From Candidatus Freyarchaeum deiterrae (GTDB lineage: Archaea; Asgardarchaeota; Jordiarchaeia; Jordiarchaeales; Jordiarchaeaceae), in NCBI GenBank assembly GCA_037305845.1, contig CP147778.1, positions 1,952,001 to 2,016,000 of the forward strand: a stretch of 64,000 nucleotides of DNA, read 5' to 3'. The notes below the pieces were generated by a model. It was not told the origin of the DNA and made no database searches. It saw only the letters and a program-made list of their open reading frames with translations. This document shows positions 36,435-41,538 of the stretch, one piece after another; the stretch's first letter is position 1, and every line of letters starts with the position of its first letter. A program made the translations under genes and the position numbers.

Positions 36435-38231
36435 TTAACCTATTACTAGTTGGGGTTCCTTTCTAACATATTTTCCTTCGCCTTCAATAGTGTAGGACAA
36501 CGAAATTTCCTGTCCCGGCTCTATTCTCTGGAAGTTCCATGTGAGTATCAACTCGTTAATGTTCTCTGTTACCTTGGGTTGTACTTCTTCTGGTTTCCAC
36601 TCAACCAAATTAAAACCTTGTGGGATAAAGTCTTTTACGGTAACGTTTGTCATGCTTACTTCTCCGGTGTTCACAATAACTAGTGGGACTACGTGTTGCC
36701 CTGCTTTCGCTCCTGGAGATACAGCTTCTTTGTATATCTTAACTGCACGACGAGTGTACTTAATTCCAATTTTTGGAGGTTTGCTTTCCAGCTCCGAGTA
36801 CTCCACGTCAGGACCAGGTTGTGTTGTGTTGCCAGTTGCTCTCAATGGAGTTGGATAACTCTTTTCAGGTTTTGGCTCCCAAGCCATCATTGGGTAAACG
36901 CATTTAACGGTTTGCCCCGGGTTTATCCCTCTCACGAGGCTTTTCATATTCTTGACGAAAACTGTTAATCCATGTCTTACTGTGGAGTTGTCGTCGTTAG
37001 GATTTGTTATAATCTCTATACCTTGAGATAATTCTTTTTCATTCACATAAATTTTTACACGTTCGTGTGCGGGGGGTTTAAAGTCCTCTGGGATAGTATC
37101 GTATATTGTCACCTGATCTAGTGCGGCGCTTCCTATATTTGATATTAAAACCGTTACAGTCATCGGTGTTTTATCATAGGCGTCTACTTGGGCTGGTGTG
37201 AAAGTTTTTTCCGCTAGAATTCTCTCCACTGGAAGCATAGTATCCTCCTTGGTAATCTTAGAATACACGTGGCGGGTTACCTCTTTAACTGCTTTGTAAT
37301 CGATGTTTGTTTCGAAGACGGGCATTGTGGGGCTTTTGACGTTAAACTTGTACTCCCACGATTGTTTTGGAGGAACATCCTTGTTAGGTTCCAAAGAAAG
37401 AAGCTGTTCTTTCTTCTCTCCCTTGATTTGGAAGATTTCCACCTTTAGGAGTCTTTGTAGAAATTCACTCGTGTTCAAAAACTCGATTGTACAATCCCAT
37501 GTTGATGGGTGTGAAGGCGACTCTGATGGTTCTATTGCAAATCTACTATCTGAAATTGCTGTGATGTCCGGGTTTAGCAGTGACCTAGTTCTATCTTTAA
37601 TGTGGTATTCTGCTATAACTTTGCCTGCACCAATTGGTTCTATGGATTCGGCAGTGATTCTTAATTTAACAACCAGAGTGGCGTCGCTTCCTGCTGACAG
37701 TTCAAAATTCTTCCATACGACCTCTCTTGATTCCGATTCAAACTCAGCGGCTCCTGTATTCGGCGGCTCTATTTCTGGATCTCCAAAACCCTTTGGTATA
37801 ACTTTTCGTATTTTTATACTGTCAATATATGTATCAGTTGGGTTGCTGACTGTGATAGTGCAACTTACAGGCATCGGTCTCTTGTACACTAAGGCCCAGT
37901 TAATTTGCTCATCTTCATCACAAGTGTCCACTGTTTCCTTCAATTTGAGAACTGTTTCCTCAACAGGCACATTATACTCTTTCGCCCAATTGTTACCTGC
38001 TAAGACTGCACCAACTGGTATAACGCTCTCTTTCAATGATGTGGTTTCTATGCCTCCGACTCGAATTTCACCGTTCCATATCCTGTTTTTTGAACTCTGG
38101 TTATTAACGGAGATAACTCCTCTTACTTTTAGGCTTTTAATCTCATGTTTCTCGGTTAAAACGCAGTCTTCGTTCTCAGTCACATCCAAGTTTAATTTTA
38201 AACCTTCTGAGCTCACAATTGTTTCCCTCAC
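36435..38231 (-). CDS. Cytoplasmic multi-beta-sandwich protein with N-terminal mu-homology-domain (adaptor mu/delta-COP)-like region
   Basis: LNLDVTE...IKSLKVRGVISV and KIRKVIP...GAAEFESESREVVWK resemble the mu2 C-terminal domain; further DUF11-like repeats; no signal peptide. Confidence 0.6.
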   Translation of the reverse strand: MRETIVSSEGLKLNLDVTENEDCVLTEKHEIKSLKVRGVISVNNQSSKNRIWNGEIRVGGIETTSLKESVIPVGAVLAGNNWAKEYNVPVEETVLKLKETVDTCDEDEQINWALVYKRPMPVSCTITVSNPTDTYIDSIKIRKVIPKGFGDPEIEPPNTGAAEFESESREVVWKNFELSAGSDATLVVKLRITAESIEPIGAGKVIAEYHIKDRTRSLLNPDITAISDSRFAIEPSESPSHPSTWDCTIEFLNTSEFLQRLLKVEIFQIKGEKKEQLLSLEPNKDVPPKQSWEYKFNVKSPTMPVFETNIDYKAVKEVTRHVYSKITKEDTMLPVERILAEKTFTPAQVDAYDKTPMTVTVLISNIGSAALDQVTIYDTIPEDFKPPAHERVKIYVNEKELSQGIEIITNPNDDNSTVRHGLTVFVKNMKSLVRGINPGQTVKCVYPMMAWEPKPEKSYPTPLRATGNTTQPGPDVEYSELESKPPKIGIKYTRRAVKIYKEAVSPGAKAGQHVVPLVIVNTGEVSMTNVTVKDFIPQGFNLVEWKPEEVQPKVTENINELILTWNFQRIEPGQEISLSYTIEGEGKYVRKEPQLVIG

Positions 38232-38377
38232 TAATTCTTAGACTGAATCAATTTTACTCTTAATTTTTGCTTGTATAAATTATTACACTTCAAGATTCTT
38301 TAACCTTTTTACCCAAATATATGGTAGTAATCTTCTATGATTACAAGTTGGCGCTCAAATTTTACTTATTGAGTTGT

Positions 38378-39067
38378 CTAATCTATCCTAAACTCCGTTC
38401 CCGCTGACCATTTAACACTTATTTCATCACCGGGTTTCATTTTCCTAAACTTGGTGCTTGGTGCTACAGTTTCCGCATGGGTAAAGAAGTATTCTATTTC
38501 AGGGTCTGTTCTAATATGCATAGGTATGGCAAGTTGAGGCTTAATGTCCGCAATAGCAGATAAAGATTGATTACTGTTGAAGGCTTCCGTTTCATCGACT
38601 CCGATTAGTACGACATCGATTGGATACTTTTCTAAAAATCCCTTAGTCATGGCGTCGCCGAGGTGTGCTACGCGTACACCTTCTATCTCCACTATGAAAC
38701 TCAGATTTGGTACTTCAACAGGTGCTACAGAGGGACCGTGTTTAAGATCCAGAGCTGTAATTTTTACATTCGGTCTATCAAAACGTTCTCCGCTTTTCAT
38801 TTTTCTTACGAGCCATTCTGGGGTGCCTTCTTTTAGCGCTATGTTTATGACGTATTCATTTCCGAGTACAAACGCCTTCTGATTTGAAGAAAGCTTGGCT
38901 GTGTTCCCTAAATGATCCTTATGTTCATGTGATACGCAGATAATGTTTGTTTTTTCAGATTCTGGCACACATGCTTTATCACCTAGTATTCCCGGGTCGA
39001 ATACTACGCTGACCTTCGGTGAATAAAATTTGAAGGCTGCGTGTCCAAAGTATTTTAACATCGGCAT
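38378..39067 (-). CDS. MBL-fold metallo-hydrolase (UPF0173-like)
   Basis: YFGHAAF, DP, SHEHKDH, HLGD, AIPMH. Confidence 0.88.
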   Translation of the reverse strand: MPMLKYFGHAAFKFYSPKVSVVFDPGILGDKACVPESEKTNIICVSHEHKDHLGNTAKLSSNQKAFVLGNEYVINIALKEGTPEWLVRKMKSGERFDRPNVKITALDLKHGPSVAPVEVPNLSFIVEIEGVRVAHLGDAMTKGFLEKYPIDVVLIGVDETEAFNSNQSLSAIADIKPQLAIPMHIRTDPEIEYFFTHAETVAPSTKFRKMKPGDEISVKWSAGTEFRID

Positions 39068-40075: not shown

Positions 40076-41347
40076 TTACTCTTCGGGTAGTTTATTCTCA
40101 GAAGCCGAGGCTCCCTCTGTTGCTTTCCCAGTTAGTGCGTTTATTTGCTGCTGTATGGTTCTCATTTCTCCACGAATTCTTGCTCTCTGCGCAGCATACT
40201 CAGCTTTCTGTAAAGCTCCAGCCTGGTACCTTTTAGTAATATAGTCTAACTGGCTCCCAAGAGAGCGCGACCTCGACTCTAAGCTCTCTAACTCTTCGCG
40301 TTTGGCTGCATCAGTCAGTAGAGGTGAGGTTGCTGGTATCGAACGTGTGCTCGTACGAATTGTTTCAGAAATCTTTCCTTGAGAAAGCACCCTCGCTGCA
40401 AAGTCTCTAAATTCATCGAGAAACACATCAAATCTCTTTCTCAGAGTAACAACTTCACTCATTAACTTGTCAATTTCAGGCGTGTAGGCAGCAGCTATTG
40501 ATTGCGTTGTTTTTGCCCTGCCTTGCAAAGGTCTTGTAGCCAGAACTGGTTTAACTCTTTCCTCAACCAACTCCTCCTCTTCCTCCTCCTGTGGAGCACT
40601 TGATTCTGTTACCTCTTCTTCCACTACTTTTTTAGAGGCTGGTTTGGTGGGGGCGACTTTGGGTTTCGAAGGTATAACCACCCATTTAAATATATTTTTT
40701 AACAGAACCATATTTTGTGAAGTATTAAGTCCACCCATTATTCGATCCCTGAACATTTCATACGATCCTAGGGCAACAACTTTTCCGTTCCCATAATTAG
40801 AAACAGCCAAAACAGGGGCATCGGGCGGCTGTGCAGTTCTGCTTGTGATAGCTAATGCTTCTGCTTCTCCCACGAGTTTTATGCTGCAGCCCGCGGAATA
40901 AGCTAATTCTGATAGTCCTTCGGTTACAGGGTGATCCTTAAATTTCGTAATTTTGGGAAGGTTTTCCATACCTAGATTTTGTCTCTCATCAAATAACTGA
41001 TTATTCTGAAATGATACTCCAAAATTCTCGGCTAACTCGTTAAGATTGGTTCTCAGTCCGGGATCACCGCCCGCATGGCTTAATAAAACAACTCCACCAC
41101 CTCTGGAAACAAAATCTAAAACAGTTCTGATTTCTGCGGGTTGTATCTTAGACTGATCTGGACAAGGAAAAACTAACGCATTGAAATCCTTCAATTTATC
41201 CAGGGTGATTGGAAAATCAACAAATCTTATGCTCTGAATACCCTCAGTTTCCAATACTCCTTTGACAGCTGAATAACTAGTAGTGATACGTCCGCGTTCC
41301 TTTTGCGTTTCATCAAAAAGGACACGCCACTTAATTTCAGCCAACAA
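40076..41347 (-). CDS. GIFT (GldG/IFT52)-domain protein with low-complexity linker and C-terminal helical hairpin
   Basis: VLFDE..KE, ITLDKL, FVSRGGGV.LL..GG....TNLN.LAENFGV; TTG start after GGAGGT; no signal peptide. Confidence 0.72.
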   Translation of the reverse strand: MLAEIKWRVLFDETQKERGRITTSYSAVKGVLETEGIQSIRFVDFPITLDKLKDFNALVFPCPDQSKIQPAEIRTVLDFVSRGGGVVLLSHAGGDPGLRTNLNELAENFGVSFQNNQLFDERQNLGMENLPKITKFKDHPVTEGLSELAYSAGCSIKLVGEAEALAITSRTAQPPDAPVLAVSNYGNGKVVALGSYEMFRDRIMGGLNTSQNMVLLKNIFKWVVIPSKPKVAPTKPASKKVVEEEVTESSAPQEEEEEELVEERVKPVLATRPLQGRAKTTQSIAAAYTPEIDKLMSEVVTLRKRFDVFLDEFRDFAARVLSQGKISETIRTSTRSIPATSPLLTDAAKREELESLESRSRSLGSQLDYITKRYQAGALQKAEYAAQRARIRGEMRTIQQQINALTGKATEGASASENKLPEE

Positions 41348-41538
41348 TAAACCTCCTATCATCGGATGAGTAAACACTTTCAACCTATTTTTCAAAAGGC
41401 TCTAAAAAAATATTTTAGAACTAACCTTTTAACCTTTTTTTCTATTCAGGTATTTAAGAACCTCAAATAATATTTTGTCGCTCATAATTAATAAAATTTT
41501 ACTATTTTTACGCAATATATTTCCATGGTGAATCCCAA

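Follow-up and report, generated by a model that had tools for sequence, protein, structure and literature searches.

The N-terminal module of a protein encoded by Candidatus Freyarchaeum deiterrae is very probably homologous to the mu-homology domain (MHD) of eukaryotic adaptor proteins, and its residues ~8–330 are confidently predicted to fold into the two lobes of an MHD, with one extra beta layer. The gene locates in the window, the whole stretch of 64,000 nucleotides analysed here, which covers positions 1,952,001–2,016,000 of a 3.58-Mb genome assembled as one contig and reported as complete (3.58 Mbp; PMC11291895). On balance, we lean towards reading the product as a soluble acidic scaffold protein, composed of the MHD module and two DUF11/CLIPPER Ig domains, that is a true distant homolog of the MHDs of AP mu, delta-COP and the muniscins and that most likely forms a two-protein unit with the upstream hydrolase in this lineage. 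Asgard homologs of vesicle-coat components are relevant to the origin of eukaryotic membrane trafficking, and a candidate published from sequence only is now backed by structure prediction as a complete mu-homology fold.

Gene, predicted fold and domain layout

The gene is an uninterrupted ORF on the minus strand of the window (36435..38231; stop codon at 36435–36437), with 598 codons counted from the first GTG. Database orthologs, the closest of which are labelled Jordarchaeum, Jordarchaeaceae and Freyarchaeota, start 5 codons downstream of this GTG. A GAGGG Shine-Dalgarno-like motif is found 8 nt upstream of the GTG at 38216, and a putative TTTATA box-like element, read from the sequence, lies ~58 nt before it (38274..38279, minus strand). 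Because both elements precede GTG 38216 and the orthologs have 593 aa, this codon is likely the true start, giving a product of 593 aa. The protein is acidic, with a pI of 5.3 for the whole chain and 5.1 for the module alone. No signal peptide or TM segment was found in it (maximum 19-residue Kyte-Doolittle mean 1.27), in agreement with the soluble protein described in an earlier note made from the sequence.

We modeled residues 1–335 with AF2 on a 108-sequence alignment. The model, with a mean pLDDT of 96.7 and a pTM of 0.89, is a single rigid body of 22 strands. It displays the elongated two-subdomain all-beta fold of MHDs, the chain passing from subdomain A into subdomain B and then back into A. 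In the Foldseek search against the PDB, the top matches were nearly all MHDs, at E ~1e-11 and probability 1.00, including those of AP-3 mu3A, AP-2 mu2, AP-1 mu1, delta-COP and AP-4 mu4. The comparison by VIA agreed with this result: among 48,161 chains, the ten best were all MHDs, from seven different eukaryotic families, scoring ~6 Z units over generic Ig folds, and 85–90% of each MHD was covered as one rigid body. The structure-match scores of the module were 18.2 for both AP-4 mu4 (4mdr_A) and AP-2 mu2 (9fiw_M), 17.8 for AP-3 mu3A (4ikn_A), 17.6 for an AP-2 mu2-FCHO2 chimera (7ohz_B), 17.3 for bovine delta-COP (4o8q_B), 16.8 for SGIP1 (5awr_A), 16.5 for both AP-1 mu1 (1w63_M) and mu2 of the AP-2 complex core (2xa7_M), 15.2 for yeast delta-COP (5fjw_A) and 15.1 for Syp1 (3g9h_A).

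The earlier note had proposed an MHD-like N-terminus at residues 1–240 and had set the two-subdomain MHD topology against independent tandem Ig domains as the possible outcomes of a fold prediction. AF2 and Foldseek found the MHD topology, and VIA also supports the fold; the span, however, is ~8–330. A full-length AF2 model on a 14-sequence alignment gave a pLDDT of 60.8, below 50 at the N-terminus, and was superseded by the deep-alignment model; Foldseek matched it to generic Ig arrays only, such as integrin legs and adhesins.

The MHD module as a whole corresponds to residues 8–332 (37236..38210, minus strand, as are all segments below), as delimited by AF2, Foldseek and VIA, and is conserved as one unit in ~250 representative proteins. 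Its first segment, d1 (residues 8–112; 37896..38210), forms the N-terminal half of MHD subdomain A and contains the LNLDVTE strand and the conserved residues E19, G38, N44, W52, Y86 and E99; here the alignment of relatives to Pfam PF00928 begins at profile position 12. The second segment, d2 (residues 116–200; 37632..37886), is the counterpart of MHD subdomain B. It corresponds to PF00928 positions 126–204 and is at the same time a DUF11/CLIPPER-type sandwich, with K143, P146, G160 and W173; Pfam matches to DUF11 cover the d2 region in relatives. Residues 201–332 (37236..37631) contain the return strands of the MHD and a family-specific extra beta layer, on the basis of VIA ranges and conservation, and the split between the two is putative. 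The signature P242-x-W-D-C-x3-F-x-N-x-S-E-F is found in this segment, and in the 108-member alignment the most conserved motif of the family, PxWDCxxxFxNxSEF, would sit in the extra layer. The residues conserved in the family are mostly of the core type (E19, G38, N44, W52, Y86, E99, K143, G160, W173, G203, W245 and P304).

The VIA alignments extend to model residues 329–332 and to the C-terminus of the MHD chains, and the last strands of the module (~316–330) align to those at the C-terminus of eukaryotic MHDs. Since ~95 model residues stay unaligned and yet the alignments end at 329–332, residues ~230–315 would make up an additional beta layer that is inserted ahead of the last strands of the MHD.

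Downstream of the module, the chain continues with two Ig domains, d4 (residues 336–472; 36816..37226), a DUF11/CnaA-like Ig domain, and d5 (residues 495–598; 36438..36749), a DUF11/CLIPPER Ig domain. The C-terminal half of the protein matches DUF11 (PF01345) at 51.3 bits against a Pfam cut-off of 24.6 bits, which bears out the earlier description of this part as Ig/DUF11-like. DUF11 is the sole Pfam family over its cut-off in the protein, and the profile match together with an Ig-like CnaA-type sandwich assigns the protein to the DUF11/CLIPPER group. We also notice a weak sequence match between d5 (family profile positions 538–607) and the gamma-adaptin ear (GAE; PDB 1GYV, E 0.006), and one family member matches Pfam Alpha_adaptinC2 at 7e-6. 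An identity of the last Ig domain as a gamma-adaptin ear was set aside, as these matches probably reflect generic Ig similarity.

Sequence evidence, the tyrosine pocket and the DUF11 relation

At the sequence level, residues 121–198 match positions 126–204 of Pfam Adap_comp_sub (PF00928) with an E of 3.2e-5 and 23.8 bits, under the curated cut-off of 31.6 and within subdomain B only. Among the close orthologs, 13 of 14 match PF00928 (best E 5.9e-7), as do 26 of 70 family members at E<=1e-3. The relative P0041 exceeds the cut-off with 40.9 bits over profile positions 12–236 of 259, and P0044, P0047 and P0055 give similar near-full-profile matches. When the module-only family profile was searched against all PDB sequences, 21 matches were obtained at E<=10, 20 of which are AP-2 mu2 or AP-3 mu3; earlier PDB searches, by phmmer with the protein and by a 4-sequence profile, gave nothing useful. 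The HMMER alignments to PDB mu2 chains are collinear. They reproduce, in the same register, both motif parallels to mu2 that the earlier note had proposed, including the IEVRIPTP...GKAKYKASENAIVWK block, and the mu2 strings given there are genuine.

The earlier note had further singled out the Asp with which mu2 binds the tyrosine of YxxPhi signals. The YxxPhi tyrosine pocket of mu2 consists of F174, D176, K203, W421 and R423, of which the first three were mapped here: by the HMMER alignment, D176 corresponds to D16, F174 to N14 and K203 to N43. D16 is therefore present, and it is retained in Freyarchaeia/Jordarchaeia orthologs, but this column holds D in 19, E in 13, N in 11 and K in 10 of the 108 family members, and the N43 column is variable. 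Nothing in these sequences points to YxxPhi binding, and the tyrosine-binding role proposed for the Asp is not supported.

As the earlier note had stated, an N-terminal longin domain is missing: no match to Clat_adaptor_s (PF01217) was found in the protein, and the MHD begins at residue ~8. The window protein is not a mu subunit. In Loki/Hel relatives, an N-terminal extension was considered as a longin and rejected; it matched nothing in Pfam up to E 10 and looks helical and acidic.

In the genome, sigma-like longin domains are encoded 1.3 Mb from the MHD gene, fused to Arf-type GTPases. Outside the window, at G000:C1:3325034-3328035 (L012:1034-4035, minus strand), three tandem paralogous genes encode proteins of 315, 312 and 329 aa, each with an Arf/Ras-type GTPase after an N-terminal region of ~145 residues. 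Clat_adaptor_s, the sigma-adaptin-like longin family, is matched in two of the three paralogs, and these are the only two above-threshold PF01217 matches of the genome. Meanwhile, a 2861-aa ORF with many HEAT/Adaptin_N-like repeat matches is found ~6 kb before the window start (G000:C1:1937745-1945808).

In order to relate the domains of the protein to each other, we compared slices of the alignment by hhalign. The d2 profile matches that of the C-terminal d5 with a probability of 97.9% (E 3.8e-13) and that of d4 with 95.1% (E 3e-8), whereas d1 and d3 showed no relation to the DUF11 domains d4 and d5. By this profile-profile comparison, subdomain B of the MHD module is homologous to the protein's own DUF11 domains. 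DUF11/CLIPPER domains (PF01345; PDB 9IFR) usually form the repeats in the stalks of secreted adhesins, in contrast to the window protein, which is signal-less and has one copy built into the MHD. This relation to DUF11 suggests an origin of the MHD that can be tested.

Compared with the MHDs of AP mu subunits (AP-2 mu2, 9FIW and 1BW8; AP-4 mu4, 4MDR; AP-3 mu3A, 4IKN; AP-1 mu1, 1W63), the window module shows an identity of 10–16%. Unlike AP mu, the window protein has neither an N-terminal longin nor a linker and carries two appended DUF11 Ig domains; its surface is acidic, the mapped Tyr-pocket positions are not conserved, and the module would hold ~95 extra residues as an added beta layer. In delta-COP (4O8Q, 5FJW) the MHD follows a longin at the C-terminus, and in the muniscins (SGIP1, 5AWR; Syp1, 3G9H) it follows an F-BAR or disordered region, whereas the MHD of the window protein is N-terminal and is followed by Ig domains.

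Distribution in archaea and relation to earlier work

A family profile of residues 1–335, built from four ~50%-identical orthologs, was searched against 1.84 billion representative proteins. At E<=1e-3 it retrieved 250 proteins, of which 171 also reached E<=1e-10, and in nearly all of them the match runs over the whole 328-position module in one stretch. The named members come from Helarchaeota, Lokiarchaeota, Ranarchaeia, Heimdallarchaeota and Borrarchaeum; a cluster of 42 members comes from marine group II Euryarchaeota (Thalassarchaeaceae), and one member from a Korarchaeota MAG lies on a short contig. Matches to the module profile occur in 340 of the 400 genomes of the Asgard phylum, in 77 of 90 high-quality genomes and in 79 of 85 genera, with one copy in the window genome and up to seven in one family. 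As judged by these profile matches, the family is near-universal and mostly single-copy in Asgard archaea, not patchy. Outside this phylum, 92 of 101 sampled Poseidoniales (MGII) genomes contain the module, full-length and at E 1e-18 to 1e-30, as do 24 of 101 genomes sampled across the phylum containing Poseidoniales. Its presence in marine group II archaea therefore weakens the status of the family as an Asgard-specific eukaryotic signature.

The family has been described before. According to Eme et al., each of the five AP domains has homologs in Asgard archaea that are not fused to one another, and the C-terminal mu domain is among these (Eme et al., 2023; Nature 618:992; PMC10307638). Of the 44 Adap_comp_sub candidates in their Supplementary Table 3 (with Supplementary text 4.3.1), Jordarchaeia_GBS07_35160 comes first; as the paper also notes, Adap_comp_sub does not occur in fusion with the longin Clat_adaptor_s (Eme et al., 2023; PMC10307638). 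Jordarchaeia_GBS07_35160 has the same printed sequence start as P0005, a protein that shares 84% identity with the window protein over 99% of the latter, making the window protein an ortholog of this Asgard ESP candidate. The window family thus is that of the Asgard Adap_comp_sub candidates; the idea of the earlier note is confirmed, yet it is not new, because Eme et al. already list the family.

The published analysis relied on Pfam matches and called the distribution sparse (Eme et al., 2023; PMC10307638), as Asgard AP homologs are described as sparse or patchy in published work. Our analysis differs from it in the predicted fold, the presence in 340 of 400 genomes, the extension to Poseidoniales, the DUF11 relation of subdomain B and the pairing with a metallo-beta-lactamase-fold (MBL) hydrolase. 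The published sparse or patchy distribution most likely reflects Pfam thresholds. In a limited literature search, we found no published structural confirmation, Poseidoniales distribution, DUF11 relation or hydrolase pairing.

Like the window protein, 140 of 149 family representatives lack a hydrophobic segment. On the other hand, three distant members from metagenomes (P0103, P0157 and P0160) carry an N-terminal hydrophobic segment, resembling a signal peptide or membrane anchor, before the MHD-like module, so that some versions of the module may be extracellular or membrane-tethered. We also notice an MHD-like module joined to a C-terminal NACHT NTPase domain in P0128 / P0189 (Candidatus Borrarchaeum, 1322 aa). 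Among the long fused variants of the family, no trafficking domains were found; one variant has NACHT and one has a coiled coil.

Hydrolase partner and possible roles

Directly upstream of the MHD gene and on the same strand lies a gene for a UPF0173-type MBL hydrolase of 229 aa (38378..39067, minus strand), with an intact HxHxDH motif and matches to PDB 3X2Z (2e-12) and also 6HRG. The gap to the MHD gene is 146 nt with a TATA-like box inside, so co-transcription is not assured. The MBL gene occupies this position, on the same strand, in all ten genomes of the class in which both genes are present. The pair is also found, in the same arrangement, in 20 of 20 sampled genomes of two Asgard families (f30 and f31), with gaps of ~30–80 nt and one degenerate MBL copy. 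It is absent from 13 other sampled Asgard loci and from a marine group II locus, and hence it does not represent the general function of the family. In a quick IQ-TREE analysis, the MBL-linked MHD genes form two clades with 100% support, whose sisterhood the tree does not settle; a single origin of the linkage is possible. Besides MBL, no conserved neighbour of the MHD gene was found in the sampled loci. The chances that the hydrolase is indeed linked with the MHD protein appear to us about even, and the conserved neighbour provides a concrete two-protein hypothesis.

A coat or cargo function, such as the cargo-adaptor function proposed in the earlier note, is conjectural. In such a reading, which we regard as unlikely, the protein would recognise cargo as a subunit of an Asgard AP- or COPI-like coat, its stand-alone MHD binding sorting motifs in the tails of membrane proteins together with separate adaptin-like HEAT and sigma-like longin-Arf GTPase proteins. 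The predicted MHD fold suits this role, but the mapped Tyr-pocket residues are not conserved, and the pI of 5.1 of the module would be at odds with the basic PIP2-type membrane patches of mu2. Sigma-like longin-Arf fusions and many Adaptin_N-like HEAT proteins are indeed encoded in the genome, consistent with the unfused AP domains of Asgard archaea (Eme et al., 2023; PMC10307638); however, the longin-Arf genes are 1.3 Mb off, neither they nor the HEAT genes show synteny with the MHD gene, and Adaptin_N matches turn up in control genomes too. The MHD gene shares its stretch with genes for an E1-like ThiF-ubiquitin fusion, E2, ARPC4-like and GIFT-domain proteins and a family-B DNA polymerase, in addition to MBL. 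The ubiquitin-cascade, ARPC4-like and GIFT genes might suggest a functional island, which we rejected, as these neighbours are not kept beside the MHD gene in relatives. The near-universal presence of the family in Poseidoniales also speaks against a coat subunit.

The other alternatives start from DUF11. In one, which the earlier note had raised as plain DUF11-type repeats, the protein is a tandem array of DUF11/Ig repeats whose likeness to MHDs arose by convergent arrangement of beta-sandwiches without common ancestry. The homology of d2 to d4 and d5 is the part of this idea that stands, and DUF11 alone passing its Pfam cut-off, the DUF11 label of ESM Atlas neighbours and the resemblance of the full-length model to generic Ig arrays only agree with it. 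The module does not, however, consist of independent Ig domains in a row: neither d1 nor d3 resembles DUF11, P0041 clears the PF00928 cut-off over positions 12–236, the sequence matches are collinear and almost all to mu chains, and MHDs of seven families take all top ten VIA ranks, ~6 Z over generic Ig. We consider convergence very improbable. Equally remote in our estimation is the possibility that the protein leaves the cell by a non-classical route and associates with the envelope or surface. The usual role of DUF11/CLIPPER in the stalks of surface adhesins (bioRxiv 10.1101/2025.04.25.650565) and the N-terminal signal- or anchor-like segments of P0103, P0157 and P0160 would accord with it, whereas the window protein has no signal peptide, hydrophobic segments are lacking in it and in 140 of 149 representatives, and the conserved partner hydrolase gives no signal-peptide family match.

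The reading as a soluble scaffold protein paired with the hydrolase is the one that we favour. By analogy with eukaryotes, the MHD would serve as a docking platform for proteins or peptides. This docking would proceed without the YxxPhi tyrosine pocket and outside any longin-containing mu subunit. We speculate that the protein most likely forms a two-protein unit with the upstream UPF0173 MBL hydrolase, for example to position or regulate the enzyme, and that the Ig tail may act as a spacer or as a second docking surface.

A broader scenario, which we offer only tentatively and hold to be rather doubtful, concerns the origin of the fold. The MHD might be an archaeal invention, older or wider than the Asgard-eukaryote link, that arose when a DUF11/CLIPPER Ig domain was inserted in another beta-sandwich. 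It might have become an obligate unit with the UPF0173 hydrolase in at least two Asgard clades, and the eukaryotic MHDs of mu, delta-COP and the muniscins might descend from it after fusion to a longin.

We also notice some further neighbours of MHD-family genes. In the window, an IFT52-GIFT-domain gene (40076-41395, minus strand) and the MHD gene are 1.8 kb apart, and another such gene (L006:16243-17481) lies ~6 kb from an MHD-family gene on an unrelated Asgard contig; the proximity at both loci may be a coincidence. At a Poseidoniales locus, a gene for an EMC3/TMCO1-type (Oxa1/YidC-like) membrane insertase (L009:8102-9004) follows the MHD-family gene (L009:6001-8064) after 38 nt on the same strand. 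A GPN-loop ATPase gene precedes the same MHD-family gene on the opposite strand, and this order is also seen on a second contig (L010).
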